DNA of 61,313 nucleotides from Klebsiella pneumoniae (GTDB taxonomy: Bacteria; Pseudomonadota; Gammaproteobacteria; Ga0077536): contig CAMATU010000002.1 of assembly GCA_945861225.1 (NCBI GenBank), positions 1 through 61,313 on the forward strand, given 5' to 3'. The notes under the pieces are model-generated. The model was given only the letters and a program-made list of their open reading frames with translations, was not told the origin of the DNA and made no database searches. Positions 1 to 27,124 of the stretch are shown here, piece by piece (the first letter of the stretch is position 1; every line of letters starts with the position of its first letter). A program made the translations under genes and the position numbers.

Positions 1-49
1 GAAGAGGGAGGTCCACTGATCTGGCCACGCATCACCGAGACCGCGCAAC

Positions 50-1441
50 GTGCTTTCGACGCAACCTGCCGAAAGCTATATCGATCCCTTCAGCAGCACA
101 AACAACGAAAATAACTCAGAATCTACCCACAGATTCCGCCGACGAGCCAAAAATTTAAACCAGCCCGTGCACGCGTACGCGATCAATCTGAACGATCTCT
201 CGGCGCAGCTGCCGTCAGCGAGCAGCGCTGCCGCGACGATTAGCGGGGTGCCAACGATTGCGGTGCTTCCGTTCGTTAATCTCTCAACGGACCCCGAGCA
301 CGAGTATCTCGTCGAGGGCATGACTGCTGATATTACGAGTGGGTTGTCCTGTGATTCTCGGTTTGCCGTCATTGCCCAAGGATCGGCGAATGCGTTCAAG
401 GGCGACACCCGCGATGTGACCGAGATCGGGAAATTACTTGCTACGAACTATGTTGTCACCGGCGCGGTGCGTCGACTTGGTGATCGTTTGCGAATAACCG
501 CAGCGTTGGTCGATGTCGCAACACGCAACGAAATCTGGAGTGCGCGCGAAGACCGCGAGTTGGCGGAAATTTTCGAGGTATTCGACGATGTAATTGAAGC
601 CCTGGTGACCGCGTTGGCTTCGCATCTGAAACTGGCCGAAGAGAAGCGGCATCGGCGTAAACCCCCCGAGCAGCTCGATGCGTGGGCGCTCACGGCACGC
701 GCTTCGCTGGCCTATTTCATCTCGGGATCAGTTTCGATCAAAGAGGGGCTGCCGATGGTTGCGCGCGCGCTTGAACTCGATCCCAATTATGCTTATGCGT
801 GGGCCGTTTATGGCTTCCTCACGGCATTGAAGTTCCCGATCGGTCTGAGTTCGGATCATGCCGCCGATGTCGAAACTTCGCTGGCCGCGACTCGCAAAGC
901 CTTGACCCTCGATCGCTACGATCCTTGGGTCCTCACGGCGCACGCCGCTGCGATGCAGTATGCCGGCCAGGCGCCAGAATCCCTTGGTTATCTCGAGCGA
1001 AGTTTGCGCGCGAATCCTAGCGAGGTGCTGACCCACTGCTACTACGGCAGGGGCTTAATGTTCTCCGGTGAGCCCGAACGTGCGCTCACCCATTTCGCAC
1101 GCTTCAAACGTCTCAATCCGACGGATCCAGGCGCACACATGGCCGCGATGTATCACGCGCTCGCGATAGTGTTCGCGCGCCGCTGGCCAGAGGCCGAAAG
1201 CATCGCGCGTGATGCGATTACGGCGGCGGGCGGCGGAAATCCTTGGTCGTGGACGGCACTCGCAATCGCGCTCGGTGCACTCGGGCGCGAAACAGAGGCG
1301 CGTGCCGCGATCGCCAACCTACTCCGACTCTCGCCACACTGGACCCGTCAGTTCGTAGAGACATTCTTTACGACCTGTCAGTCTGAGCAAAGCCTCGTGA
1401 CCCCCTTGCTCGACATTCTTCGCATCATCTGGCCGGACTAA
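50..1441 (+). CDS. TPR-repeat protein with N-terminal TolB-N-like domain (regulatory/periplasmic type)
   Basis: 463-aa ORF with a GTG start. The motif IAVLPFVNLSTDPEHEYLVEGMTADITSGLS is typical of the TolB-like domain found in front of TPR repeats, and the C-terminal half is TPR-like. Codon third positions are GC-rich. Confidence 0.6.
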   Translation: MLSTQPAESYIDPFSSTNNENNSESTHRFRRRAKNLNQPVHAYAINLNDLSAQLPSASSAAATISGVPTIAVLPFVNLSTDPEHEYLVEGMTADITSGLSCDSRFAVIAQGSANAFKGDTRDVTEIGKLLATNYVVTGAVRRLGDRLRITAALVDVATRNEIWSAREDRELAEIFEVFDDVIEALVTALASHLKLAEEKRHRRKPPEQLDAWALTARASLAYFISGSVSIKEGLPMVARALELDPNYAYAWAVYGFLTALKFPIGLSSDHAADVETSLAATRKALTLDRYDPWVLTAHAAAMQYAGQAPESLGYLERSLRANPSEVLTHCYYGRGLMFSGEPERALTHFARFKRLNPTDPGAHMAAMYHALAIVFARRWPEAESIARDAITAAGGGNPWSWTALAIALGALGRETEARAAIANLLRLSPHWTRQFVETFFTTCQSEQSLVTPLLDILRIIWPD

Positions 1442-1532
1442 CAATTGAGCGATCTGCTGCATGACTGTGTGGACCATTCATCACTAAATGTCCGTGTGCG
1501 ACGATTGCGATATTCAAATAAGCGATGCGTAA

Positions 1533-1577
1533 AAAAGGTGCCGGCGTGATTAAATTTTATCCACGCCGGCACCTTTT
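1533..1577. terminator. Bidirectional rho-independent terminator hairpin
   Basis: Perfect 16-bp inverted repeat aaaaggtgccggcgtg / cacgccggcacctttt with a 13-nt loop. It has an A-run on one side and a T-run on the other. Confidence 0.6.
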
Positions 1578-1663
1578 CGCCTTTTCGATATTCAGGTCAG
1601 CGATCCACCGGCGGCGGACTATCATTGATACACTGCTAGCAATTTGTTGAGCGCGCGTTGACG

Positions 1664-2974
1664 ATGCCTGTACCCGAAGTCCCAACCCGCATCCGCTGGC
1701 GCATCATCGCGCTGATTTTCTTCGTTTACGTGTTGATGTTCATTGATCGCATCAACATCTCCATCGCCGCGAAATACATCATTCCAGAGTATGGGCTTAG
1801 CCAGGTCGAATTCGGCGCGATTTTCAGCGCATTCGTGTTGGCTTATGCGCTCGCCCAGATCCCGGGCGGCTGGCTCGGTGATCGCTTCGGTCCGCGCCGG
1901 GTCATGACCTGGGCCATTTTGTGGTGGTCGGCGTTTACTGCCGTCACCGCGATCGCGGGCGAGTTGGTCTTAGCCTCGACCTTGGGAGTGGTTGGCTCGT
2001 TCGCGGTGGTGCGCGCACTGATCGGTGTCGGCGAAGCAGCGGCGCCACCGAACGGGAGTCGCATGATCGCCAACTGGTCGGCACCGGCGGAGCGCGGACT
2101 CGCCTCGGGCTTTGCCATTAGCGGGAGTTCAATTGGTGGGGCGCTGACGCCGCCGCTGATCGTCTGGATCATGATTCATTGGGGGTGGCGCGAGGCGTTC
2201 TATATCACTGGTATCGCCGGAATCGTGGTCGCAGTCATCTGGTATTGGTTGACGACGGACACCCCATTGACCCATCCTCGGGTCAATTCCGCAGAGCGTG
2301 AAATTATCGATCCGGCACACAGCCGGTCTGCAGGGGCTTACGAGGCTTCGCGCAAAGTGCCGTGGCGGCGTCTGTTCGGGAGTCGGGATCTGTGGTTTCT
2401 GACAGGTGCCTATGCCGTCCTCGGGTACATCGTCTACTTCTACTTCGCGTGGTTCTATCTTTATCTCGTGAATGAGCGGGGCTTTTCGCTGGAGCTTGGC
2501 GGCATCTTTACCATGGCGCCGTTCCTGACGATGGCGGTCGCGAGTCCGCTCGGCGGCTGGCTCAGCGATAGCATCGGCCGGCGTTACGGTAAACGCTGGG
2601 GCCGCTCCGGGGTGGGCTGCATGGCGATGGTGCTGACTGGGATTTTTATTCTTCTCGGTGCGGCGACGGACAATGCAATCCTCGCGGTTACGTTGTTGTC
2701 CGCGAGTACCGGCATCCTGATGTTGAGCGTCGCGGCATTTTGGGCGACGACGATCGATTTAGCCGCTCGTTATGCTGGTACTGTCGCTGGCATCATGAAT
2801 ATGGGCGGCAACTTGGGCGGTACGATTTCACCGTCACTCACGCCGTATCTCGCGGAACATTATGGGTGGAACAGTGCGCTCTATGTGATGGGTGCACTCA
2901 GTCTGCTGGGGGCCGCGTTATGGCTCGGCGTGCGGCCGGCGCAGGAAATCGATTTCGACGCGGCACAGCGCTGA
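1664..2974 (+). CDS. MFS transporter (anion:cation symporter / ACS-like)
   Basis: About 436 aa and polytopic. The motif FIDRINISIAAKYIIPEYGLSQVEFGAIFSAFVLAYALAQIPGGWLGDRFGPRRV is a typical ACS-family MFS signature. The track ORF starts at TTG 1658; the ATG is at 1664. Confidence 0.85.
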   Translation: MPVPEVPTRIRWRIIALIFFVYVLMFIDRINISIAAKYIIPEYGLSQVEFGAIFSAFVLAYALAQIPGGWLGDRFGPRRVMTWAILWWSAFTAVTAIAGELVLASTLGVVGSFAVVRALIGVGEAAAPPNGSRMIANWSAPAERGLASGFAISGSSIGGALTPPLIVWIMIHWGWREAFYITGIAGIVVAVIWYWLTTDTPLTHPRVNSAEREIIDPAHSRSAGAYEASRKVPWRRLFGSRDLWFLTGAYAVLGYIVYFYFAWFYLYLVNERGFSLELGGIFTMAPFLTMAVASPLGGWLSDSIGRRYGKRWGRSGVGCMAMVLTGIFILLGAATDNAILAVTLLSASTGILMLSVAAFWATTIDLAARYAGTVAGIMNMGGNLGGTISPSLTPYLAEHYGWNSALYVMGALSLLGAALWLGVRPAQEIDFDAAQR

Positions 2975-3007
2975 CGTCGGGAAATTTAACGCGATAGGAG
3001 CAAAGCA

Positions 3008-3904
3008 ATGTCCGGCACTACACACCGTACCTCCATTAGCTATATTGACCGCACACGCGAGTATTACCACGCGCTGGGCTATGCGAAGCCTTACGTGTGG
3101 GCGCGCCACACGGACGCCGCTTTCGCCGCGCTTGCGAAGCCGCTGGCGCAGAGCCGGCTCGCCCTGGTAACTACCGCGAGCCCGTGGCGCGAAGACCAAG
3201 CTGCAGACGGCGCTCCGCGTGGCAGCAAGCGAGTGTGGTCGGGAGCGACCGAAGTGCCACCCGCGCGCCTGCACACGGAAGATCTCGCGTGGGACAAGGT
3301 GACCACCCACACGCGCGATGTGGAATCCTTCCTGCCCATTCGCCGCCTGCAAGAGGCAGTGGCAGCGCGGCGCATCGGAAGTCTTGCCGCCCGCTTCCAT
3401 GGCGTCCCGACGGATTACTCACAGCGCCGCACCATTGAACAAGATGTGCCTGAAATCCTCGCACGCTGCCGCGAAGATGAAGTTGATATCGCGCTCCTCG
3501 TTCCGCTCTGACCCGTCTGCCACCAGACCGTGAGTCTGGTCAGTCGCCACCTCGAGGAGAACGGAATCGCGACTGTCGTGATCGGCTCGGCGCGCGATAT
3601 CGTCGAGGAATGTGGCGTTGCGCGCTTTCTCTTCAATGATTTTCCGCTCGGCAATCCGTGCGGGAAGCCGTACGACGTTGAAATGCAACGCGCGATCGTC
3701 GGTCTGGCGCTCGATCTGCTGGAGAGCGCGTGGCTACCCCGCACGACCGTGCAGACGCCGTTCCGTTTCAGCGAAGAGGAGAGCTGGAAGCAAAACTATG
3801 CGCGGGTTGATCCTGCGCAGAGTGCGGAGCTGCTGCGTTTGGGTGAGCAACGTCGGAAACTCAGGGACAGTTTACCGATTACACCTGCAGTCTCCGACTC
3901 CTAA
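3008..3904 (+). CDS. GrdB/PrdB-family (selenoprotein B-like) reductase subunit, in-frame UGA 3509-3511 read as Sec168
   Basis: Track ORFs 3008-3511 and 3530-3904 are in the same frame and are separated only by one TGA. Read-through gives ...DIALLVPL-U-PVCHQTVSLVSRHLEENGIATVVIGSARDIVEECG.... There is an AGGAG RBS 8 nt upstream of the ATG, a hairpin just after the TGA, and selD in the same window. Confidence 0.75.
3517..3543 (+). promoter_or_regulatory. Candidate bacterial SECIS hairpin
   Basis: The structure is CUG-(CC bulge)-ACCAGAC-cguga-GUCUGGU-CAG. It starts 6 nt after UGA 3509-3511, and the apical loop contains GU. Confidence 0.5.
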
Positions 3905-3938
3905 ATCGGTAAACTGCCCCGGATTTCTGGATTTCGTT

Positions 3939-4427
3939 TCAAGGCGGTAACAACAGGCGCAGCATGCCCAGGCCGGGGCCGAGCTCGGACCACCGCGCGA
4001 GATCCAACGCCACTTCGGCCAGGGTGCCCGCCTCGCACATGAGCGAGGCATCCATCTGCTGAGTGGTTAGTAAACTTATGAAGTCCGCGACCCCGGGCGC
4101 ATGCGCAACCAACAACAGTTGGGTGACGTCAGCCGACTGACTTCGCGCTGCGCTGAGGAGTTCGGCGGCGCTCGCCTGGTAAAGCCGATCAATGGAACAT
4201 ACCGGAGTGGTCCACGCGGCCGCCGCGACTACTGCCTCGGCAGTTTCCCGCGTACGCACCGCCGCCGAGCACACGATTTGATCGGGAAGGTAGCCGCGTT
4301 GCTGCAGCCAGGTACCCAGCGTTTGCGCCTGCGCACGCCCATAGGCGGTGAGGGGGCGCTGCACGTCGGGCAGTGCGCGGCTCTCTGGTGCGGCTTGTGC
4401 GTGACGCAGAATCAACAGAGATTTCAC
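3939..4427 (-). CDS. SixA-like phosphohistidine phosphatase (histidine phosphatase superfamily)
   Basis: VKSLLILRHAQAAPE...RPLTAYGRAQAQ...VCSAAVRTRETAE contains the RHG-type motif. GTG at 4427 avoids overlap with the upstream gene; the track ORF extends to 4583. Confidence 0.7.
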   Translation of the reverse strand: MKSLLILRHAQAAPESRALPDVQRPLTAYGRAQAQTLGTWLQQRGYLPDQIVCSAAVRTRETAEAVVAAAAWTTPVCSIDRLYQASAAELLSAARSQSADVTQLLLVAHAPGVADFISLLTTQQMDASLMCEAGTLAEVALDLARWSELGPGLGMLRLLLPP

Positions 4428-4441
4428 GCTCGCGACAAGCC

Positions 4442-5086
4442 TTACGCCGCACCCAGCGCGTACGCGCTGCTCGTGGGCGTCATTAGCGGGATCATTCGCC
4501 AGTGCGCACCGCTGCATTCGAACATCAAAGGTAGCGCGTTGGCGGTCAAGTCCACCGAAAGCTCGATGTCCAGCGCGCCACACAGCACGCGCAATACGCC
4601 CCCATGACTGACTAGCAGCGGCAGTGGCCCCGGCACCAGCAGCTCACCAACACCCACCAAGGTGCGATCAACAAAATCGACCAGGGTCTCGCCATTCACG
4701 GGATCTATCCGCCAGTCCAAGCCTTCGCTGGTGGTGCCGATGAGATCGCCAAAGTAGCGCTCGCGGAGCGCAGCGCACACGCTCACTGGTTTAGCGGTCG
4801 CGGCGGCCACGCGACCGGCAGTGAGCCATGCGCGAGCCATGTCGCTGGCATAGATGTGATCGAAGGGAATGTCGCATAGGCCGCTGGCAGCGGCGTCGGC
4901 ATCACCGAAACCTTCTGCGCACAGCGGAATATCTGGATGCTGAAAAACCCGCTGCAGATTGCCGGCAGTGCGGCCGTGCCGCAGGAACAGGAAGCGATCA
5001 CGATTGGCTTTCAGGCCCGTGGCGCGCGCGATGGCACGCAGTGCCAACTGGCCGGCCTGATTCTCAAGCGTTGCGGTAGTACTCAT
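4442..5086 (-). CDS. Histidine phosphatase family protein (phosphoglycerate mutase-like)
   Basis: Motifs FLFLRHGRTAGN ... LLVSHGGVLR; 214 aa. Confidence 0.8.
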   Translation of the reverse strand: MSTTATLENQAGQLALRAIARATGLKANRDRFLFLRHGRTAGNLQRVFQHPDIPLCAEGFGDADAAASGLCDIPFDHIYASDMARAWLTAGRVAAATAKPVSVCAALRERYFGDLIGTTSEGLDWRIDPVNGETLVDFVDRTLVGVGELLVPGPLPLLVSHGGVLRVLCGALDIELSVDLTANALPLMFECSGAHWRMIPLMTPTSSAYALGAA

Positions 5087-5182
5087 GGAAGATTCTCGGC
5101 CGTTGGATCACGCAGGGTTCAATTCTGGAGTGCGCACACCTCGCATGCAATCACGGCGGCGTCGAGGCGATGACGAGGCAGA

Positions 5183-6601
5183 CTAGTGACCGGCGACTTC
5201 GCGCACCAGTTCGTGCAGCAGGAGCGTGGCGTTGGTCAGTTCGTTAATCGAGATGCGCTCGTCACGGCCGTGCACGCGCGCGATTTCTGCCAGCGGCAGG
5301 CGCATGGGCATGAAGCCATAGCAGGTGATGCCCTTGGCGCGAAACGTATTGCAATCAGTAAAGCCGGCGATGAAGTTGGGTGTGACCTGCGCGCCAGCCG
5401 CGTGCCGTTGAATCACAGTCGTGATCGCACTGAACAAGTCGGTATCGAGCGGCGAGGAATGGGCAGTCGAAGACAGCAGAGTCTCGCTGCGCACTGTGGG
5501 CTCATGCATTACGCGCGCAAGCTCAGCGACCACCGCCAGTGGGTCCTGCCCCGGCAGCAGCCGCAAATCGAGCACGGCGGAAGCTTCGGCCGGATACACG
5601 TTCTCCTTGGTGCTGCCAGTCAACATGGTGATCGCCAGACTGTTACGCACCATGGCGGCGCGGTGTGGATCGTGTAGGAATTCGGTACGGAACGCCGGCT
5701 GCGTCAGTGATTTAGCGAGATCGCGATAGGCCGCACGCTGATCCAGCGGCAGCGTCTCGGCACGCCGGTCGAACACCCGCTGTACTTCCGGCACGACCAC
5801 CAGCGGAAATTCAAACTGCTCAAGACGCGCCAGTGCGCGTACCAGACGATGCGTGGCCGCTTCTGGCTTCGGCAGAGAAGCATGGCCCGCTGGCCCAGTC
5901 GCGATCACTTTTAACCATAGCGGCACCTTCTGCGCAAATTCGACAGCATAGAGCAGGTGTCCATCAGTCGACTGCAGCATGGCACCGCCTTCGTTCAGCG
6001 CGAACTCAACGTCCTGCAGCAGCGCAAAGTGTTCGGCCATCAGGTAACGCGCGCCACCGCCACCGCCTTGTTCTTCATCGGCCACCGCCAGCAGCACCAC
6101 GTCCCGCGCGAGTGGCACCTGGAGTCGCTTGAGCAGCACAAAGGACAGCAGTTCCATGATGCCTGGTCCTTTGTTGTCGAGCGTCCCGCGGCCCCACACA
6201 TAGCCGTCACGCAGCGCACCAGCGAACGGCGGCGTACTCCATTCATCGGCACTGGCCGGCACCACATCCATGTGATGCACGAGCATGAACGCCCTGCGCT
6301 TGCCGTTGCCCTTGAGACGCGCATATAGATTTGCGCGGCCTGGCGCACTTTCGAATATCTGCGACTCGATTCCCTCACGCTGCAGGAAGTCGGCCAAAAA
6401 TCGCGCGGTTGCGAGTTCGTTACCGGGCGGATTGGTGGTATCGATCTGCACGTATTGGCGCACCAGGCACACCGCTTCCGCCTGAACTGCGGCCGGCGCC
6501 AAGGTCATTGCGCGCGGACAAGCAGCCACCGAGTCTGGCTGCGGCGGACTCGCGCGGCTCTCCGCCGCGGTTACTGCCACGCTGAATATGATCGACAGCA
6601 A
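5183..6601 (-). CDS. M20 family metallopeptidase (secreted?)
   Basis: Motifs LVHHMDVVPA, GRGTLDNKG, AVADEEQGG; hydrophobic N-terminus. Confidence 0.85.
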   Translation of the reverse strand: MLSIIFSVAVTAAESRASPPQPDSVAACPRAMTLAPAAVQAEAVCLVRQYVQIDTTNPPGNELATARFLADFLQREGIESQIFESAPGRANLYARLKGNGKRRAFMLVHHMDVVPASADEWSTPPFAGALRDGYVWGRGTLDNKGPGIMELLSFVLLKRLQVPLARDVVLLAVADEEQGGGGGARYLMAEHFALLQDVEFALNEGGAMLQSTDGHLLYAVEFAQKVPLWLKVIATGPAGHASLPKPEAATHRLVRALARLEQFEFPLVVVPEVQRVFDRRAETLPLDQRAAYRDLAKSLTQPAFRTEFLHDPHRAAMVRNSLAITMLTGSTKENVYPAEASAVLDLRLLPGQDPLAVVAELARVMHEPTVRSETLLSSTAHSSPLDTDLFSAITTVIQRHAAGAQVTPNFIAGFTDCNTFRAKGITCYGFMPMRLPLAEIARVHGRDERISINELTNATLLLHELVREVAGH

Positions 6602-6749
6602 AATGCAAATTAATTTGATTCTCGGACCTCTGCTGCAGGGTGCGCTTGCCGGGATCGCGGCAAGCGATGCGCATAGATAGCGCTGGATTTCATTTCAATT
6701 TTTCCTGTGGACCAGCGCGAGAGGTGATCACAGCACGGACATCGATCGA

Positions 6750-7523
6750 CTACTGTGCCGTCCAACCGCCATCGACTGCCCAGGCCACGCCGCGCACGTT
6801 ATCCGCCGCACTCGTGCAGAGGAAGATTGCCAACTCACCGAGTTGTGCAGGGGTCGTGAACTGCAGTGAGGGTTGCTTCTCAGCCAGTAACTCGCGGCCA
6901 GCCTGTTCGATTGATATGCCCGCCTTTGCTGCCCGCGCATCAATCTGCTGCTGGACCAGCGGGGTTAGCACCCAGCCCGGGCAGATCGCGTTAACCGTGA
7001 CACCGGTGGCCGCGGTTTCGAGCGCGAGCGCTTTCGTCAAACCGACAATGCCGTGCTTTGCCGCGACATAGGCCGACTTACCGGCGGAGGCGACCAGCCC
7101 GTGAGTCGATGCAATGTTGATTATGCGGCCCCAGTTGCGCGCCTTCATGTGCGGCAGGGCCAGGCGCGAGGTGTGGAAGGCCGAACTTAGATTGATGGCG
7201 ATGATGGCGTCCCAGCGATCGACCGGAAAGTCCTCCACATTTGCGACATGCTGGATACCTGCGTTGTTCACCAATACATCAGCCCCACCGAATTTTTTCT
7301 CAGTGAAGGCCAGCAGGTCTGCGATCTCCGCAGGCTTGCTCATGTCCGCGCCGTGGTACTCAACCTGCACGCCGAGCGCAGTGACTTGGGCAATCGCAGC
7401 GGGGTAATCCCCGAAGCCGTTCAGCACGATATTCGCGCCTTGGCGAGCCAGGCACAACGCGATGCCGAGCCCAATTCCGCTGGTCGAGCCGGTGACCAGT
7501 GCCGTTTTATCTTTGAGTGTCAT
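6750..7523 (-). CDS. bdhA: 3-hydroxybutyrate dehydrogenase (SDR)
   Basis: LKDKTALVTGSTSGIGLGIA, YVAAKHG, and a C-terminal ...VRGVAWAVDGGWTAQ typical of BdhA. Confidence 0.85.
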   Translation of the reverse strand: MTLKDKTALVTGSTSGIGLGIALCLARQGANIVLNGFGDYPAAIAQVTALGVQVEYHGADMSKPAEIADLLAFTEKKFGGADVLVNNAGIQHVANVEDFPVDRWDAIIAINLSSAFHTSRLALPHMKARNWGRIINIASTHGLVASAGKSAYVAAKHGIVGLTKALALETAATGVTVNAICPGWVLTPLVQQQIDARAAKAGISIEQAGRELLAEKQPSLQFTTPAQLGELAIFLCTSAADNVRGVAWAVDGGWTAQ

Positions 7524-7622
7524 GAGTCGATCTCGTTAGGCGCCTGCGTGTCTTCGAAGTTGATGGTGAGGCTCGCGCGCGCGAGAAGATCGGGGACCCT
7601 AAAGATTCCCGATCGTACTCGC

Positions 7623-8759
7623 TCAGATCGGCGTGAACCCCGCCTCACGCGGAAATCCCGCAATATCCGGTGGCGGGTAGTAGCGATCCGCGCCCAGCGC
7701 ATCGACTCTCGCGAAGAACTCTTCGTTGGCCGCGAAACCCATGGGTCCCAGCTCGCGCAGGTTCATCGCCTGGCGGTAGAGATTCCACGATTCGGGGTGT
7801 AAATCGCTCGCAGTTTTCAGGCACGCATCGCCTTCCGCTTCTTTGCCGTGCTGGCGCAGATAGAAGCCTAAACGGAAGTTGGCATTGGCGAGTGCGACAT
7901 TATCCGCCGGGAGTTCAAGATGCGCGCGCGCCTGTTCTGGCGTGAAGGCGTGCTTGCTCTTGGCGCCGTTGATGGCCCAATCGCGGACTGCACTCACATA
8001 GGTCTGTTGTGCCTTGGCGACAAGCGCGGCGGAGCCTTCCGGCACGCTGCGATCTTCACGGTTCATTGCGCGCCAGCCGTCGTGCGAGCCGGCGGTCTCA
8101 GCCGGGCGCACGATGTGACCTTCCTCGTCGATCCACACCGCCTGCGGCACATTGACCATGTTGTACAAATCCGCGACATGATGTTCGCGATCGATCAATG
8201 TCACATAGCCTGGCTTGGCAAGATCAATCCACTCGCGTGCAGTTTCATTGCCGCGGCTCTCTTCGGCCACCGCGATGATCATGAAATTCTGGTCTTTGAC
8301 TTCGTCGTACAGAGCCTGCCACACGGACAGGTCATAACGACAGCCTCACCAGGACGACCAGGTCGTCAGCAATACGCGCTTGCCACGATAATCAGACAAG
8401 GCATGCGACTTGCCGTCGATATCCGGCAGCCGGAAGTCCGGTGCGTCCAGCGTCTTAAGCGCATTCGCGCGATCACTTGCGCCCACCCCAAACAGCCAGG
8501 TATCACGGGCTTGATCGTGCAGCACCGGGCGACCCAATAACTTCCAAAACGCGGCGGCGTTAACGTCGTCGCCCTGCACAAAGGTCTCAGGTTTTTCACG
8601 GGGTACCGGCACGCACAGGTCGCCCTGGCACAGGCCTTCGGGTTTCAGGGTCCAGCCGAGCGCGCGTTCGATGTCGGGCTTGTTCAGCCACAGATCGTCG
8701 CCGCTGGCGCGCCCCGCTGCCACCATCGTGGCGCCGGCCTCGGTAAGTACGGTGAGCAT
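7623..8759 (-). CDS. Thioredoxin-fold (TlpA/ResA-like) selenoprotein, in-frame UGA (8346-8348) read as Sec138, plus helical C-terminal domain
   Basis: Track ORFs 8346-8759 and 7623-8324 are in the same frame. Between them is one TGA followed by GGC TGT CGT. Read-through gives RVLLTTWSSW-U-GCRYDLSVWQALYDEVKDQNFMIIAV, a CxxC redox motif with U at the first position. A strong AAGGAG RBS precedes ATG 8759. Confidence 0.75.
8304..8341 (-). promoter_or_regulatory. Candidate SECIS-like extended hairpin
   Basis: Minus-strand RNA folds as GUCGU-UAU-GACCUG-uccgugugg-CAGG(C)UC-UGU-ACGAC, starting 7 nt after the UGA. It was folded by eye and is imperfect. Confidence 0.35.
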
Positions 8760-8821
8760 AAAGTTCTCCTTGAAAAGAGCGTGGGTAGATGAATCGGCTG
8801 TGCGAGCGAGAATAACGCAGA

Positions 8822-11044
8822 TCAGGTGGCGACCAACACAGTGCCGATAACCGTTGCCGCTTTACAGTCGGCCGCACGCAGCGCCGCAAGACATTGCGCG
8901 ACCTGCCGCGCCGGCACCGCGAGGAGCAACCCACCCGATGTCTGCGGATCAAACAACAACGGATAACGCAGCGGAAACTGCGCGTGGTCGCTAATGGTTA
9001 AATGCGCGTCCAAACGCTCGTTGTGTTGATGGAGCGTACTGCGGATACCCGCCTCGACCATTTCGCACGCGCCAGCCAGTACGGGCAGCGCGCCGAGCGT
9101 TATTTCCGCCCGCAAGCCCCCGCGCCGAAGCATCTCGCTGAGATGACCGGCCAATCCGAAGCCCGTCACATCCGTCATCGCATGCACTTCGAAGGCCTCG
9201 ACGGCGCGCGCGGCGGGGCCGTTGGTCGCGACCATGTGTTCGAGCGCGTAATCCAGCCAGGCGCTGTGCGCGAGCCGCCGCATGGCGCCAGCCAGGACGA
9301 CGCCGCTACCGAGGGGTTTGGTCAGGATCAGGCAATCTCCGGCGCACAGAGCGTCCTTAGCCCTTAACTGATCGCGCGCGACATGGCCGTTAATCGCGAA
9401 GGCCAGCGACAATTCAGCCCCTTCACTGGTGTGACCACCGACCAGTGCAGTCCCTTCTTGCGCGAAGACCGCACTGGCGCCGGCCAGCAGCAGCGCCAAA
9501 TCACGGCGCACCATGGCCGGCGCGGCGAGCGGCAAGGTGACATAGGCCAGTGCCGATTGCGGCTGCGCGCCCATCGCGAAAATATCGGACAGACAATGGG
9601 CGGCAGTAATCTGGCCGAAGACATAGGGATCGGACACGAACGCGCGAAAGCCATCGATGGTATGCACCGCAAGGCGCCCTCGCGGCAACTCGGTCACTGC
9701 CGCATCGTCGCGGCCGCCAAGGCCCACGATGATGTCCGCACGCGGCGCCGCCGGCAGTTCCCGCAAGGCCTCGGCGATGATTTCCGCGCCGACCTTGGCG
9801 CCGCAACCGCCGCAGCGCATTGCTTGCGGACCGAGCGCTGCAATCTCGCGCGCCAAGGCGGCCGGTACAGGCGTCGCGGCGTGCGTCATCACTGGCAGGT
9901 GTTGGTACTTGCGCATGAAGCGACGATCAATCCAGTCTTTCCAACGCCATACCCAGGCGCCGCTCAAGCGCCAATTGCCGCGTGAGGCGACGGCTGACTT
10001 CGCGCCGGTGGAAATCAGACTCAGCGCGTCGCGTTGTGGACGATGGTCGCGAAGTGCTTCTCCGCGACAGGCACGGCGCAGATTTTCCGCCAGCGCTGGC
10101 CCTTGGCGCACCGCATATACGCCAGACTTAGGCCGCGGCGCGCCATCAATCGTTGCGCAGTCACCTACCGCGAAAATCTGCGGATGGGAGACCGAACGCA
10201 GATTATTGCCGACGCGGATATAGCCCGCCGCATCGACCGCGAGACCCGCCTCCGCGAACCACGGGGCAGCAGCGGCGGTAGTCACCCACAACACTTCATC
10301 GAGCCAAAAGCGCGCGCCGCTTTGCGCGTGGACTGCGTCCGGCTCGACGCGCACGATGCGCTGTCCGGTGTGTACCAGGATGCCCTGCGCGGCAAGCACG
10401 CGGGCGAACGTGTCGCGGGTGCGGCGATTATGGGCCGGCAGTACCTCGGTGGTCGCAGTGAACAAGTGAAACTCAAGATGTGCGGCGCTGCGTCCAGTGG
10501 CCGCGAGTTCGCCAAGCAGACGATGGCGAACGGCGAGGATTAGCTCAACCCCCCCTGCGCCGCCACCCACCACTCCCACCTTAAGCGGGCTGTTGCTCGC
10601 CAATACGCGCGCGTGCAGCGCCAGCCAGCGCACATTGAACTCATCGATCGGCTTTACCGGTGTTACGTTCGGCGAGATCTCGGGCAGATCTGCGAGTGAT
10701 GGCGTGGAACCCGCATTGATCGAGAGCAGATCAAATTCGAGCGGTGGCCGACCGCGACACAGCACACGCCGTGCAAGGATATCGAAACCTACCACTTCGG
10801 CCTGGATGAAGCGGGCCTGGGCGAATTCGGCCAGTGCCCGTAAATCGAAATGCATTTCATCGGGTTGGTAATGACCGGCGATAAGCCCTGGCAGCATGCC
10901 GGAATAGGGCGATTGGCTGGCGCGGCTGAGCAAGGTCAAACGTACCCCGGGTAACGGTTGCATGCCAAAGCGCTTCAATACGGCTAGATGACTGTGGCCG
11001 CCGCCGATGAGGACGAGATCTTTAACGACGGGTTGGGTTAGCAC
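8822..11044 (-). CDS. selD: Bifunctional FAD-dependent pyridine nucleotide-disulfide oxidoreductase / selenide,water dikinase (SelD fusion, Cys-type)
   Basis: The N-terminal half has DLVLIGGGHSH and GVVGGGAGGVE Rossmann motifs. The C-terminal half has RCGGCGAKVG ... GRDDAAV ... HTIDGFRAFVSDPYVFGQITAAHCLSDIFAMGAQP, which are SelD signatures. GTG 11044 (MLTQPVVKDLVLIGGG) is the likely start; the track start 11215 overlaps the divergent gene. Confidence 0.85.
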   Translation of the reverse strand: MLTQPVVKDLVLIGGGHSHLAVLKRFGMQPLPGVRLTLLSRASQSPYSGMLPGLIAGHYQPDEMHFDLRALAEFAQARFIQAEVVGFDILARRVLCRGRPPLEFDLLSINAGSTPSLADLPEISPNVTPVKPIDEFNVRWLALHARVLASNSPLKVGVVGGGAGGVELILAVRHRLLGELAATGRSAAHLEFHLFTATTEVLPAHNRRTRDTFARVLAAQGILVHTGQRIVRVEPDAVHAQSGARFWLDEVLWVTTAAAAPWFAEAGLAVDAAGYIRVGNNLRSVSHPQIFAVGDCATIDGAPRPKSGVYAVRQGPALAENLRRACRGEALRDHRPQRDALSLISTGAKSAVASRGNWRLSGAWVWRWKDWIDRRFMRKYQHLPVMTHAATPVPAALAREIAALGPQAMRCGGCGAKVGAEIIAEALRELPAAPRADIIVGLGGRDDAAVTELPRGRLAVHTIDGFRAFVSDPYVFGQITAAHCLSDIFAMGAQPQSALAYVTLPLAAPAMVRRDLALLLAGASAVFAQEGTALVGGHTSEGAELSLAFAINGHVARDQLRAKDALCAGDCLILTKPLGSGVVLAGAMRRLAHSAWLDYALEHMVATNGPAARAVEAFEVHAMTDVTGFGLAGHLSEMLRRGGLRAEITLGALPVLAGACEMVEAGIRSTLHQHNERLDAHLTISDHAQFPLRYPLLFDPQTSGGLLLAVPARQVAQCLAALRAADCKAATVIGTVLVAT

Positions 11045-11177
11045 GCGTAGCCGACACTGATTACCGAAGGTGGACTGTAGCGGACCCGCGGCCCTGCCCC
11101 AACCCCTACATTTATCCCGGCACCTGACGCCCTCGGGTACACTGCGGGGCATCAGCCTGTTCAGTTGGAGACTACCG

Positions 11178-11837
11178 ATGGATCTCGCAAGCCTTACCCA
11201 CCGCCTCGCGGCCATCGAAACCTCTCACCTGGCGGATGCCAACAAAGCGATCCGCCTGATGGACCCTGGTCTGCGACCACTGCATGCAGGGCGCAAGCTT
11301 ATTGGACGTGCTTTTACGCTCACCTGTCACGAGGATTTCATGACCGTGATGGTGGCGCTCAAGGAGGCTGAAGCGGGTGATGTGCTGGTGATCGATACCC
11401 GTGGCAGCCGGCGTGCGGTACTCGGCGAGCTGTTCAGTCTGGAAGCGCAACGGCGCGGCTTGGCGGGCATTATTGTCGATGGCCCCGTGCGGGACACGGT
11501 GACACTCCGGACGCTCGAGATCCCAATTTACGCGCGCAGCACAACCCCGCTTGCGGGCACCATCCAACAGCTTTCCCCGGTGCAGCAACCCGTGCAGTGC
11601 GGTGGAGTCACCGTCAACCCAGGCGATATGGTGTTTGGCGATGAGGATGGGATTATTGTCGCGAGCGCCGCCGAGCTCGCAGCGCTGTTGCCAGCAGCCG
11701 AAGAAATCGAGGCGCGTGAACGGGCCGTGATTGCGCGCCTGCAAGCCGGTGAGAGCTTGTTATCGATGCTCAATTTCGAGGAGCATCGGGCTAATCTGAT
11801 GGCCGGGCGCGAGAGTGCTTTGCGTTTTCTGACTTGA
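11178..11837 (+). CDS. RraA family protein (RNase E regulator / HMG-aldolase-like)
   Basis: Motifs GDVLVIDTRGSRRAVLGELFSLEAQRRGLAGIIVDGPVRD. ATG 11178 has a GGAG RBS. Confidence 0.8.
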   Translation: MDLASLTHRLAAIETSHLADANKAIRLMDPGLRPLHAGRKLIGRAFTLTCHEDFMTVMVALKEAEAGDVLVIDTRGSRRAVLGELFSLEAQRRGLAGIIVDGPVRDTVTLRTLEIPIYARSTTPLAGTIQQLSPVQQPVQCGGVTVNPGDMVFGDEDGIIVASAAELAALLPAAEEIEARERAVIARLQAGESLLSMLNFEEHRANLMAGRESALRFLT

Positions 11838-11840
11838 GGC

Positions 11841-11990
11841 TGATTCTCGACGCCGTCATCCCGGGCGAAGACCCGGGATCCAGGGGCGATGGATGTTCAG
11901 CGTGGATCCCGGCTCACCGCTGCGCGGTGTCCGGGATGACGGGGTTAAGGGAGTTGCGTTGATTCTCAATTTCGTCATTCCGAGTCTTCT
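11841..11990. repeat. Family-C palindromic intergenic repeats (cgtcatcccggg..cccgggatcc type), about 3 units
   Basis: cgtcatcccgggcgaagacccgggatcc (11854-11881) and ggatcccggctcaccgctgcgcggtgtccgggatgacgg (11904-11942). The same sequences recur near 15.3, 19.8, 29.0 and 51.3-51.4 kb. Coordinates are approximate. Confidence 0.8.
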
Positions 11991-12034
11991 CGCGACCAAT
12001 CTTTAAAACGATTACAACCAAAGAGGATCAAACA

Positions 12035-13090
12035 ATGTCACTCGATATGGATAAGTTGAACACCCTGGTGTTCCGCATGATCGGCGAGGTGGGCGCAGCA
12101 GCGCAGGGCTCGCTGGTGTTGTTGGGCGATCGGCTGGGGATTTATCGCGGGATTGTCGAGCATGGCCCGCTGTCCGCCGCTGGCCTGGCGGAAAAACTTG
12201 GCTTTCATGAGCGCTACCTGCGCGAGTGGCTGCATGCGCAGGTCGCGGCACAGTACATCGATTACGATGCTACCAACGAGACCTTTTCCCTGTCGCCTGA
12301 GCAGGCCGCGGTGTTCGCGGATCCCAACAGCCCAGCCGCACTGACCGGCGGCTACTGGGGGATCTCGTCGCTGTATCAGGACGAGCCAAAAATTGCCGAA
12401 GCGTTCAAAACTGGCGAGGGCGTGCCGTGGGGCGCGCACAGTGCATGCTTGTTCTGCGGCACTGAGAAGTTCTTCGGGCCCGCGTATCGCGCAAATTTGG
12501 TCGAGAGCTGGCTGCCCTCGCTCGATGGCATGTTGGCGAAACTGCAACACGGCGCGCGCGTCGCGGATGTGGGTTGCGGACACGCGCTCTCGACGCGCTT
12601 GATGGCGAAGGCTTTTCCGAATTCGCAATTTGTCGGTATCGATTATCACCAGCCCTCAATCGATCACGCGCGCGAACTCGTGCGCCAGGAAGGTCTCGGC
12701 AACCTGACCTTCGAGCAAGGCACCGCGCAGGAGTTCGCCGGTGACAACTACGATTTGATTACCTTCTTCGATTGCCTGCACGACATGGGCGATCCCGAAG
12801 GCGCGGCACGCAATGTGCGGAAGCGTCTGAAGCCCGATGGCACCTGGATGATTGTGGAGCCACAGGCGGGTGACACCCTCAGCGAGAACATCAACCCGAT
12901 CGGGCGCGCTTTCCTCGCGTTTTCAACCATGGTGTGTGTGCCAGCCTCTTTAAGCCAAGCCGGACGCGCCGGGCTTGGCGCGCAAGCCGGTGAGAAGCGC
13001 TTAACGGCCGTGATCAAAGCCGGTGGCTTCACGCACGTGCGACGTGCCACCGAGACGCCGACCAACATGATTCTCGAAGCACGACCGTAG
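12035..13090 (+). CDS. Class I SAM-dependent methyltransferase with N-terminal winged-helix-like domain
   Basis: VADVGCGHALSTRLMAKAFPNSQFVGIDYH is SAM motif I; also DLITFFDCLHDMGDP. Confidence 0.8.
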   Translation: MSLDMDKLNTLVFRMIGEVGAAAQGSLVLLGDRLGIYRGIVEHGPLSAAGLAEKLGFHERYLREWLHAQVAAQYIDYDATNETFSLSPEQAAVFADPNSPAALTGGYWGISSLYQDEPKIAEAFKTGEGVPWGAHSACLFCGTEKFFGPAYRANLVESWLPSLDGMLAKLQHGARVADVGCGHALSTRLMAKAFPNSQFVGIDYHQPSIDHARELVRQEGLGNLTFEQGTAQEFAGDNYDLITFFDCLHDMGDPEGAARNVRKRLKPDGTWMIVEPQAGDTLSENINPIGRAFLAFSTMVCVPASLSQAGRAGLGAQAGEKRLTAVIKAGGFTHVRRATETPTNMILEARP

Positions 13091-13098
13091 AGGACGCC

Positions 13099-14073
13099 AT
13101 GACGCACGCAATTCGCCTACATCGCACAGGGGGTCCGGAAGTCCTGCAATGGGAAACGGTTGAGGTGCCAGTCCCGGGACCGAAAGAGATCAGGCTGCGG
13201 CATACCGCGGTGGGTCTGAACTATATCGATGTTTATTACCGCACCGGGTTGTACCCGGCGCCGCTGCCATTTTCGCCGGGGCTGGAAGCGGCCGGGGTGG
13301 TGGACGCGGTGGGTGCCGAAGTCACCACCCTCAAGGTGGGTGATCGTGTGGCCTATTCCACTGGTCCGCTCGGCGCCTACGCTGAAGCGCGCGTGATCGC
13401 GGCCGAACGGATGGTGAAGATCCCAGACGGGATTTCAGATCAGCAAGCCGCTGCCATGATGTTGCAGGGCATGACCGCCGAATATCTGGTGCGGCGGACT
13501 TATCCTATTAAGCGTGGTGACACGATTCTGATCCACGCGGCGGCCGGCGGCGTTGGCTTGATCGTGTGTCAATGGGCGAAGCACCTCGGCGCAACGGTGA
13601 TCGGCACTGTGGGATCGGATGAAAAAGCAGCGCTGGCGCGCGCTAATGGCTGCGATTATCCCATTGTCTACACCCGCGAAGATTTCCAAGCACGCGTGCT
13701 GGAGATTACGAATGGTGCAAAAGTGCCGGTGGTCTATGACTCAGTGGGGCGTGACACCTTCGCGAAGTCCCTGGATTGTTTGGCACCGCTCGGTCTGCTC
13801 GCGTTATTCGGGCAGGCGTCGGGGCCGGTGCCGCCGTTTGATCTCGGCCAACTCGCGGCCAAGGGTTCGCTCTACATCACGCGGCCTACTTTGTTCACCT
13901 ACACTGCGCAACGCGCCGATCTGGAGGCCAGCTCAAGCGCGTTATTTGATTTGGTGCAGCGCGGGGTCGTGAAAATTTCCGTCAACCAGACCTATCCGCT
14001 GCGCAATGCAGCGGATGCGCAGCGCGACCTTGAAGCACGCCGCACCACGGGCTCAACGGTGTTGGTCGTGTAA
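13099..14073 (+). CDS. qor: NADPH:quinone oxidoreductase (zeta-crystallin/MDR family)
   Basis: AVGLNYIDVYYRTGLYP, HAAAGGVGL, and the C-terminal TGSTVLV tail. Confidence 0.85.
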   Translation: MTHAIRLHRTGGPEVLQWETVEVPVPGPKEIRLRHTAVGLNYIDVYYRTGLYPAPLPFSPGLEAAGVVDAVGAEVTTLKVGDRVAYSTGPLGAYAEARVIAAERMVKIPDGISDQQAAAMMLQGMTAEYLVRRTYPIKRGDTILIHAAAGGVGLIVCQWAKHLGATVIGTVGSDEKAALARANGCDYPIVYTREDFQARVLEITNGAKVPVVYDSVGRDTFAKSLDCLAPLGLLALFGQASGPVPPFDLGQLAAKGSLYITRPTLFTYTAQRADLEASSSALFDLVQRGVVKISVNQTYPLRNAADAQRDLEARRTTGSTVLVV

Positions 14074-25270: not shown

Positions 25271-27124
25271 TCAGGCCGTCTTCTGGCGCTGTTCACGCTT
25301 GCGATCATGTTCCTTCAGCATGCGCTTACGAACCCGCACCGCAGTCGGTGTCACTTCGACCAATTCGTCATCCGCGATGAATTCCAGCGCCTGTTCGAGA
25401 TCAAACTTAATCGGCGGTGTGAGCAGCAGGTTCTCATCAGTGCCCGCGGCACGAATGTTGGTGAGCTGCTTGGCCTTCAACGGATTCACCACGAGATCGT
25501 TGTCGCGCGAATGAATCCCGATAATCATGCCTTCGTAAACTTCATCCGCATGACTCGCAAATAGCCGCCCACGTTCCTGCAGGCTGAACAGCGCATAGGC
25601 CAGCGCCTTGCCTTCGCCATTCGAAATCAACACCCCATTCACGCGGCCACCGAGGTTGCCCGGCTTGACTGGCGCGTATTTTTCAAAAGTGTGATAGAGC
25701 AGGCCTTCGCCAGATGTAATGGTCATGAACTCGGTGCGGAAACCGATTAGCCCACGCGACGGTATCGAATAGTCGAGCCGCACGCGGCCTTTGCCGTCCG
25801 GCACCATATCGAGGAGCGCGCCCTTGCGCGAACCGAGACGCTCCATGACCGCGCCCTGAGCGTCAGTCGGCACATCCACTGTGAGCTGTTCAAAGGGTTC
25901 GCACTGCACGCCATCAATTTCTTTCAAAATAACCTGCGGGCGACCCACTGCGAGTTCATAGCCTTCGCGGCGCATGTTCTCGATCAAAATCGCGAGATGC
26001 AATTCGCCGCGCCCGGAAACGTTGAAGACTTTGGGATCGTTGGTTAATTCAACGCGCAGCGCCACATTGTGAATGAGCTCGCGTTGCAGGCGCTCACCAA
26101 TTTGTCGACTGGTGACGAACTGACCTTCGCGGCCCACAAAGGGCGAATCAGAAACCTCGAAACTCATGCTGACCGTCGGCTCATCCACCAACAACGCCGG
26201 CAAGGCCTCCACCGCAGAAGGCAGGCATAGCGTATCGGAGATGCGCGGCGCATCGATGCCAGTCAGCGCGATGATATCGCCAGCGCTGGCTTCCGTACGT
26301 GCTTCGCGCGTGAGGCCGTGAAATCCTAGGACTTCGAGGATTCGGCCGGAACGCGTGGTGCCCGCTGCGTCCACAATCGTGACATTTGTATTGGGGCGGA
26401 TGGTGCCGCGCTTGATACGCCCGATGCAGATCGCACCCACGTAACTCGAATAGTCGAGTGAACTCACCTGCATCTGGAATGGACCATCGACATCGACATC
26501 GGGCGCCGCCACGTTTTCCACCACGGTCTCAAACAACACCGTCATGTCGGTTTCAGGGCCGTCCGGCGTACGCCGCGCAAAGCCCAACGTGGCGGAGGTG
26601 TAGATCACCGGGAAATCCAATTGCTCCTCGGTGGCGCCGAGGCGATCGAATAAATCAAAAGTTTGGTCGAGCACCCAGGCGGGGCGCGCGCCTGGCCGGT
26701 CAATCTTGTTAATCACGACAATCGGGCGCAGACCTTGCGCAAAAGCTTTGTGCGTGACGAAGCGGGTTTGTGGCATGGGGCCTTCGACGGCGTCTACTAA
26801 TAAGAGCACCGAATCCACCATCGACAAAATCCGTTCAACTTCACCGCCGAAATCGGCGTGTCCGGGGGTGTCGACAATATTGATGTGGTACTCGCGCCAA
26901 TTGAGTGCGGTGTTTTTGGCCAGAATGGTGATCCCACGCTCGCGCTCGAGATCGTTGCTGTCCATCACCCGCTCACCCGTATCCTTCCGCACATTGAGCG
27001 TGCCGGACTGCCGGAGTAACTGATCAACAAGGGTGGTTTTGCCATGATCGACGTGCGCGATGATGGCGATATTGCGAAGATTCTGAATCACGGGGGGAGT
27101 CCGGTCGGGCGAAAGGGGCGGCAT
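25271..27124 (-). CDS. typA: Translational GTPase TypA/BipA
   Basis: [41 protein letters not shown]. The start is uncertain: 27124 ATG, 27133 GTG or 27091 GTG. Confidence 0.9.

Follow-up and report, generated by a model that had tools for sequence, protein, structure and literature searches.

Fusions of selenophosphate synthetase (SelD) to an NDH-2-like flavoprotein, with a CxxC hallmark in the SelD half, have been known since 2008, and these Ndh-SelD proteins made up ~40% of the Cys-type SelDs in the Global Ocean Sampling (GOS) metagenomes (Zhang et al. 2008, PMC2398784). The idea of a reductase half that supplies SelD is likewise already in the literature as a hypothesis (PMC2398784), and a 2026 review treats the delivery of reduced selenium to SelD as an open question (PMC13188914). 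Homologous fusions occur as SenC in the selenoneine cluster senA-senB-senC (Kayrouz et al. 2022; bioRxiv 10.1101/2022.04.13.486033). The selenocysteine (Sec) trait has been proposed to move and persist as an island accompanied by one or more selenoprotein genes (Zhang et al. 2006, PMC1794560). Here we describe a fused selD gene with two selenoprotein genes close by in a 61,313-nt stretch of DNA (positions 1 to 61,313 of contig CAMATU010000002.1, assembly GCA_945861225.1; hereafter the window), part of a metagenome-assembled genome (MAG; here G000) of 354 contigs and 88% completeness. The host is a selenoprotein-rich uncultured proteobacterium. An earlier note on this DNA had read the neighbourhood as a possible dedicated redox module. 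Our comparisons make it quite probable that the locus is the selenophosphate-supply gene of this organism with two selenoprotein genes nearby, an arrangement that reflects a habit of the lineage and not a fixed module. Each of the three focal genes falls within a described family or lies beside one (Table 1).

The earlier note had described an oxidoreductase-SelD fusion of 740 amino acids (aa) with a Cys-type SelD loop, CGGCGAK, and both descriptions held. In the longer, 797-aa open reading frame (ORF) that starts at an ATG, Pfam found Pyr_redox_2 at residues 65-372, followed by AIRS and AIRS_C. In NCBIfam, the N-terminal half matched TIGR03169 'Nterm_to_SelD' (466.7 bits, cut-off 310) and the C-terminal half the SelD equivalog TIGR00476 (283 bits, cut-off 125). 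TIGR04369 'fusion_not_SelD' was ruled out as the identity, with 490 bits against a cut-off of 700. A hexamer log-odds coding model, trained on 1547 long ORFs of the window genome, gave the 5' extension of the ATG ORF (11045-11215) -0.61 bits/codon versus 0.35-0.86 in neighbouring genes, and homologue alignments began at about residue 56-62 of that ORF. We therefore prefer the 740-aa model that starts at GTG 11044.

The SelD active-site loop reads MRCGGCGAK. C411 and C414 were present in 97/97 aligned fusion proteins and K417 in at least 97%, and the glycine motifs for flavin adenine dinucleotide (FAD) and NAD(P)H in the flavoprotein half were conserved in the same alignment. The flavoprotein half contained no CxxxxC redox disulfide and its sole mostly conserved Cys was C96 (88% of sequences), so its sequence identifies it as NDH-2/SQR-like and not as a classical disulfide reductase. 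The nearest structures in the PDB were the SelDs of E. coli (3u0o) and Aquifex and the NDH-2 entries 9pxk and 4nwz. The window protein shares the two-domain architecture, the invariant CxxC, the Cys-type active site and both dinucleotide-binding motifs with the Ndh-SelD family and shows no architectural difference; what sets it apart is that in this lineage the fusions work for the Sec trait and make up a clade separate from that of the sen-linked fusions. It was the sole SelD above cut-off in the window genome. From the equivalog match and the Cys-x-x-Cys...Lys loop, the SelD half would make selenophosphate from reduced selenium and ATP. The NDH-2-like half most likely draws on NAD(P)H and FAD, either to produce reduced selenium or to pass it to the CxxC loop, and a reductase half that feeds selenide to SelD is plausible. 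The type of SelD varied in the family of the window genome: G003 and G013 matched the SelD half only (stand-alone SelD, 35% identity). G022 (100% complete) lacked selA, and its only counterpart of the fusion was a stand-alone 441-aa homologue of the N-terminal flavoprotein, which fits the NCBIfam remark that TIGR03169 members occur also without selenium use.

Both TGA-containing genes named in the earlier note lie within 7 kb of selD as it had stated, their TGAs ~0.5 kb and 5.3 kb from the selD 3' end. The nearer one, which encodes a ResA/TlpA-like thioredoxin (Trx)-fold protein, is called the WSSWUGC gene here after its motif; the names Trx-like, ResA-like and WAxxUGC-like refer to this same gene, the last of them also to its relatives. 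It begins 62 nt downstream of selD behind the ribosome-binding site AAGGAGA, and a scan of the window predicted no terminator between the two. Because of the short gap, the good ribosome-binding site and the missing terminator, selD and the WSSWUGC gene are probably co-transcribed. The protein contained an AhpC-TSA domain at residues 105-217 and no signal peptide or membrane anchor, and is therefore probably cytoplasmic, unlike ResA and TlpA. It matched the NCBIfam model NF041054 (WAxxUGC_long, 'ResA-like WAxxUGC motif-containing protein') over positions 9-352 of 354 with 284.2 bits, short of the cut-off of 300, while a paralog on contig C6 exceeded it with 311 bits. Compared with the W-A-x-x-U-G-C motif of that model, the TGA and the following GC were present and Ser replaced Ala. 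A literature search for the name WAxxUGC found nothing. The window protein is like the NF041054 family in its Sec at the first position of the UGC motif and its TlpA/ResA-type thioredoxin fold, and differs as a divergent paralogous branch that adjoins or lies near selD in three genomes. The TGA and the frame downstream of it were kept in all 6 orthologs (59-87% identity) and in all paralogs, and coding scores on either side of the TGA were 0.75 and 0.86. The N-terminal region (residues 1-100) also carried a CxxxxC motif, GLCQGDLCVP, that was kept in the paralogs, and the C-terminal ~150 aa (residues 230-378) matched no Pfam domain.

The second gene encodes a PrdB/GrdB-like protein. It matched TIGR04483 with 84.3 bits (cut-off 300) and TIGR01918 with 18.4 bits (cut-off 65.45), had no Pfam (GRDB) match, and is on this sequence evidence not a bona fide PrdB or GrdB. 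It had >3500 full-length homologues of ~290 aa, the best of them 55-62% identical. Sec168 aligned with an invariant Cys (PL-C-PVCHQT) in 13 aligned homologues, and its TGA was kept in 11 further genomes of the family at 45-88% identity. The protein is distantly homologous to PrdB of D-proline reductase and GrdB of glycine/sarcosine/betaine reductase and has its Sec in a UxxC at the matching active-site position. It differs from them as a stand-alone form of ~290 aa with thousands of Cys homologues, found in aerobic proteobacteria such as Bradyrhizobium. PrdA, GrdA, GrdC and GrdE were not beside the gene, whose neighbours are a major facilitator superfamily (MFS) transporter and histidine phosphatases, although no genome-wide search for them was made.

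A Sec insertion sequence (SECIS)-like hairpin followed each TGA. Taken as single sequences, the two hairpins had unremarkable fold z-scores (-0.08 and -1.75), and the evidence for them therefore comes from covariation. In the WAxxUGC-like hairpin the 6-bp apical stem paired in 10/10 orthologs and paralogs, two of its pairs had switched from C-G to U-A through double changes, and its covariation score was reached by 2/500 shuffles. For the PrdB-like hairpin, 89.6% of cells were paired across 12 orthologs, three pairs had changed on both sides, and 0/500 shuffles reached the score. The compensatory changes in the apical stems included both C-G to U-A and A-U to G-C, and slid controls all fell far below the observed scores for both hairpins. 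An Rfam scan of positions 1-14000 with permissive E-values returned no SECIS or other relevant family and only two chance matches. Coding scores from the hexamer model, which replaced a detector based on GC content at third codon positions (GC3) that was dropped at a GC3 of only ~0.70, were high on both sides of each TGA. An alternative is that the two TGA genes are pseudogenes or sequencing artefacts. The in-frame stop codon fits this and nothing further does, and 6 and 12 orthologs at 45-88% identity kept the TGA at an identical codon and a conserved frame beyond it, homologues had Cys at its position, the hairpins covaried and the Sec machinery was present, which leaves the idea with next to no probability. 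The conserved TGAs, the Cys at the aligned position in homologues or paralogs, the SECIS covariation and the two-sided coding signal thus identify both as genuine selenoprotein genes, and the SECIS-like elements are predicted to serve SelB-dependent Sec insertion.

The genome as a whole encoded the complete Sec-decoding set of selA, selB, tRNA-Sec and selD. As the earlier note had observed, the window itself lacks selA, selB, tRNA-Sec and selU: model and tRNA searches came back empty (no tRNA, selA or selU) except for a sub-threshold GTPase at 26690-27073, the only match to the selB model. The genome-wide search that the note had recommended located tRNA-Sec (C26:4261-4355), selB (C26:4424-6343, 427 bits) and selA (C26:6385-7713, 566 bits) side by side on contig C26. 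It did not find selU/ybbB (TIGR03167), for which the best match in this 88%-complete MAG was 21 bits against a cut-off of 220. A genome-wide TGA scan returned 258 candidates, mostly adjacent in-frame genes or non-coding stretches, of which we accepted the 10 that had a redox motif together with paralog or model support. These 10 confident selenoprotein genes represent four families (2 PrdB-like, 3 WAxxUGC-like, 3 AhpD/YciW-like with CxxU, and 2 Prx-like with WUP(F/Y)C) and are a lower bound, as the scan would miss fdhA-type or very short selenoproteins. One AhpD/YciW-like gene (SCHY-U-IPTH; C26 ~7.7-8.5 kb, TGA at C26:8060, plus strand) sits divergently beside selA. The note's remark that the selenoproteins lie with selD and not with the decoding genes was thus incomplete, since this third gene abuts selA. 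Its paralogs were at C11:8268 and C16:35523, and the AhpD/YciW-like proteins weakly matched NF053654 'YciW-related (seleno)protein' (56-70 bits, cut-off 310). The Prx-like paralogs (C54:8229 and C221:430; FRGHW-U-P(F/Y)C, 216 aa) matched no NCBIfam family at E<=1e-8, and orthologs of theirs lay between selD and tRNA-Sec in G017, G019 and G021. Selenophosphate from the fusion would pass to the SelA, SelB and tRNA-Sec encoded on C26, and SelB would read UGA as Sec with the help of SECIS hairpins in 10 genes or more, two of them in the window.

We compared the locus with 80 SelD-fusion loci from other taxa, whose 10-kb flanks were searched with all window proteins, and with 25 genomes of the same family and 16 from other families of the class. 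Outside the family, clustering the neighbours of ~100 loci showed that the usual company of the fusion was the known selenoneine cluster: SenB (TIGR04348) occurred within 4 kb in 44/80 loci, usually within ~50 nt, SenA (NF041186) in 24/80, and the TIGR04553 binding protein of a putative selenate ABC importer in 29/80. One alternative is that the fusion is a SenC that makes selenophosphate mainly for selenoneine or another small selenium compound and not for Sec, and the closest homologues outside the family (47-54% identity) were indeed mostly sen-linked. However, tblastn found no SenB in the window genome and only an EgtB-like match for SenA (25% identity), SenB was above the TIGR04348 cut-off in 0/25 family genomes, and the flanks of selD in the family loci contained neither SenA nor SenB. 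In a maximum-likelihood tree, a branch with 97-98% support in the Shimodaira-Hasegawa-like approximate likelihood ratio test (SH-aLRT) set the family fusions apart from the sen-linked ones. With the Sec machinery complete and the fusion as the only SelD, we regard a SenC role as very improbable. SenC remains a homologous fusion (~50% identity) that presumably has the same selenophosphate synthetase activity, while the fusion of the window family is in a separate clade and has selenoprotein genes as neighbours in place of senA and senB.

The earlier note had also proposed that selD, the Trx-like gene, the PrdB-like gene, two phosphatases and an M20 peptidase together make up one selenium or redox pathway. 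Its account of the gene order was accurate, with the phosphatases and the M20 gene on the minus strand between the two selenoprotein genes, although it did not mention bdh at 6750-7523 in the same interval. The genes are physically close in the window, and the closest relative, G002, had the M20-phosphatase-phosphatase-PrdB-like block in the same order. At 82-90% protein identity, though, G002 is so near that a common order carries little weight, and neither selD, bdh nor the Trx-like gene lay in front of its block, where a citrate-synthase-like gene (by sequence reading) stood instead. The G002 WAxxUGC-like gene, with bdh after it, was on a separate small contig, C686. The PrdB-like, histidine phosphatase, M20 and MFS genes were found in 0/80 loci from other taxa, the ~20 family selD loci showed no such linkage either, and PrdB-like orthologs in ten other genomes had none of the window neighbours within 1.5 kb. 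The PrdB-like gene also lies on the opposite strand. The earlier note had itself named missing linkage around orthologous fusions as what would count against the module, and that is largely what we found: by synteny the proposal is largely refuted, and we give it very little probability. Because the flanks in G002 and around the PrdB-like orthologs differ, we read the PrdB-like, phosphatase, M20 and bdh genes as probable unrelated passengers brought near selD by recent rearrangement.

One association did recur. The conserved selD flank in the genus was the divergent RraA/methyltransferase/quinone oxidoreductase side, and on the other side the pairing of selD with a WAxxUGC-like gene was found in three genomes of the genus. 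In G000, the window genome, the gene follows selD on the same strand after 62 nt. In G010 it precedes selD on the same strand by 89-94 nt in an entirely different context, and in G005 it follows selD beyond a 1.3-kb insert containing a GGTCACTC repeat and a Ser-type gene of the DsbA fold. The G005 locus (L012), from the nearest relative in the 80-locus set, was the only one of the 80 with a WAxxUGC-like ortholog. The comparison of SelD-fusion neighbourhoods that the earlier note had called for thus showed the Trx-like gene with selD in these three genomes, and no PrdB-like gene in the 80 loci from other taxa. In L012, ~nine tandem copies of the octamer GGTCACTC occupied positions 4130-4210 of the insert, with the DsbA-fold gene after them. 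We dropped that gene as a second redox partner, as Ser replaces its active-site Cys (FDFGSPAAY); its sequence resembles the HCCA-isomerase/kappa-GST type. ORFs of insertion sequence (IS)-type transposases, recognised by translation only, lay at 8645-10175 of L012, a few kb past the WAxxUGC-like gene, which is consistent with local rearrangement.

This recurrence raises the possibility that selD and the WSSWUGC gene are a functional pair, a short electron or selenium relay with the fused flavoprotein in which the WSSWUGC protein would reduce selenium species (selenotrisulfide, perselenide) or re-reduce the SelD CxxC loop. The same-strand adjacency in differing contexts in G000 and G010, the 1.3-kb spacing in G005 and the lack of a predicted terminator in the window would all fit, as would the Cys- or Thr-type Trx-fold genes beside SelD fusions at two distant loci. 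Those genes lay ~0.1-1.3 kb from the fusion and were a Thr-type Prx-like gene in L076 (12320-12622; Vicinamibacterales) and a Cys-type TlpA-like gene in L077 (8394-8714; alphaproteobacterial). However, WAxxUGC-like orthologs were unlinked to selD in G019 and G015, other members of the genus with the RraA-selD flank had no WAxxUGC ortholog beside selD, and in G005 a repeat tract and a further gene came between the two. Elsewhere in the family, selD had a selenoprotein gene of an unrelated family as its neighbour, and the 14 commonest neighbour clusters of ~100 loci included no Trx-fold family. We consider a functional pair unlikely.

A broader pattern emerged when the 10 selenoproteins and a TGA scan were applied to the selD flanks in ~20 genomes of the family. 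Of ~19 usable genomes, 9 had a Sec-encoding gene no more than 3 kb from selD, and the family of that gene differed: WAxxUGC-like in G000, G005 and G010, PrdB-like of two further subfamilies in G009, G016 and G020, and Prx-like (WUPYC) in G017, G019 and G021. In G017 and G019, selD faced a compact string of Prx-like(U), tRNA-Sec, selB and selA, of which only the Prx-like(U) gene and tRNA-Sec remained beside selD in G021, while in G009 selA-selB-selC were 9-11 kb from selD. In this family, Sec machinery and assorted selenoprotein genes would thus tend to lie together in loose 'Sec islands'. selA was present in 21/25 family genomes and 0/16 genomes from other families of the class, a distribution consistent with the Sec trait having been gained as an island. 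As in described Sec-trait islands (selA-selB-selC, usually with fdhA; PMC1794560), selenoprotein genes abut the Sec machinery and the trait is confined to one family within the class. Here, however, the flanking selenoproteins are of thiol-oxidoreductase type (Prx-like, PrdB-like, WAxxUGC-like and AhpD-like) and not fdhA, and selD belongs to the island and is its recurrent anchor, with a neighbouring family that switches between genera. This family-wide placing of varied selenoprotein genes beside a fused selD is a modestly new element. A further reading takes selD as a genomic anchor, either through selection for co-regulating selenophosphate supply with demand or because any Sec-containing Trx-fold or UxxC protein could act as a relay; the WSSWUGC protein would then be the local version of the relay to the SelD CxxC loop. 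We hold this reading to be unlikely.

Several points weigh against the preferred reading of a selenophosphate-supply gene with selenoprotein genes nearby by lineage habit. With random placement, a pair of selenoprotein genes no farther than 7 kb from selD would be unlikely (~1e-3): assuming ~10-20 selenoprotein genes in 4.5 Mb and uniform placement, the post hoc chance is ~6e-4 to 2.5e-3. The selD/WAxxUGC-like pair stays together in G000, G005 and G010 despite differing order and flanks, a persistence that hints at selection and that a pure passenger model does not predict. Co-transcription of selD and the WSSWUGC gene is a prediction from the gap and the terminator scan. In a fragmented, 88%-complete MAG, it is uncertain both whether selU, senA and senB are truly missing and how far selD really lies from selABC. 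Finally, the function assigned to the reductase half is putative.

The remaining genes of the neighbourhood are listed in Table 1. The MFS gene upstream of the PrdB-like gene was not found beside PrdB-like orthologs, and that pairing is therefore not conserved. The Pfam match of the SixA-like phosphatase starts at residue 56 and its G002 ortholog has 167 aa. A scan for promoters and terminators was uninformative, with fewer terminator-like sites than in shuffled sequence.

Table 1 Features of the selD neighbourhood in the window, with positions counted from the first letter of the stretch
Feature	Position	Strand	Evidence
MFS transporter, upstream of the PrdB-like gene	1658..2974	+	Pfam, NCBIfam
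PrdB/GrdB-like orphan selenoprotein gene, 298 aa, PL-U-PVC-HQT	3008..3904	+	NCBIfam, homologues
UGA codon read as Sec168, context LVPL-U-PVCHQT	3509..3511	+	Alignment, orthologs
SECIS-like hairpin, stem ACCAGAC/GUCUGGU, loop CGUGA starting 17 nt after UGA	3514..3546	+	Fold, covariation
Histidine phosphatase (His_Phos_1), SixA-like; true start probably internal near 4440	3939..4583	-	Pfam, NCBIfam
Histidine phosphatase (His_Phos_1), CobC/GpmB-like	4442..5086	-	Pfam, NCBIfam
M20 family metallopeptidase or deacylase	5183..6601	-	Pfam, NCBIfam
3-Hydroxybutyrate dehydrogenase (bdh; short-chain dehydrogenase/reductase, SDR, family), downstream of the Trx-like gene	6750..7523	-	NF009093, 365 bits (cut-off 258)
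ResA/TlpA-like Trx-fold selenoprotein gene, 378 aa, W-S-S-W-U-G-C	7623..8759	-	Pfam, NCBIfam, orthologs
SECIS-like hairpin, stem CCUGUC/GGCAGG, loop CGUGU starting 20 nt after UGA	8303..8342	-	Fold, covariation
UGA codon read as Sec138, context TWSSW-U-GCRYD	8346..8348	-	Ortholog conservation
selD fusion gene, 740 aa, NDH-2-like flavoprotein and Cys-type SelD, start GTG 11044	8822..11044	-	Pfam, NCBIfam, coding score
CxxC codons C411-G-G-C414 of the SelD glycine-rich loop, then GAK (Lys417)	9803..9814	-	Fusion alignment
RraA/aldolase-like gene, divergent from selD; probable true start Met near 11154	11070..11837	+	Pfam, NCBIfam
Methyltransferase, conserved selD flank within the genus	12035-13090
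Quinone oxidoreductase, conserved selD flank within the genus	13099-14073

Among natural proteins, the Ndh-SelD fusion is the most obvious putative candidate for an enzyme with built-in selenium delivery, and this locus is a clean case of it: a selenoprotein-rich organism has the fusion as its only SelD and uses it for the Sec pathway, not for selenoneine. It also illustrates how a neighbourhood that looks like a pathway in one genome dissolves when relatives are compared. What survives is a weaker, family-wide tendency of selenoprotein genes to lie near selD or selABC, which may serve as a search heuristic for new selenoproteins and as a hint of co-regulation.

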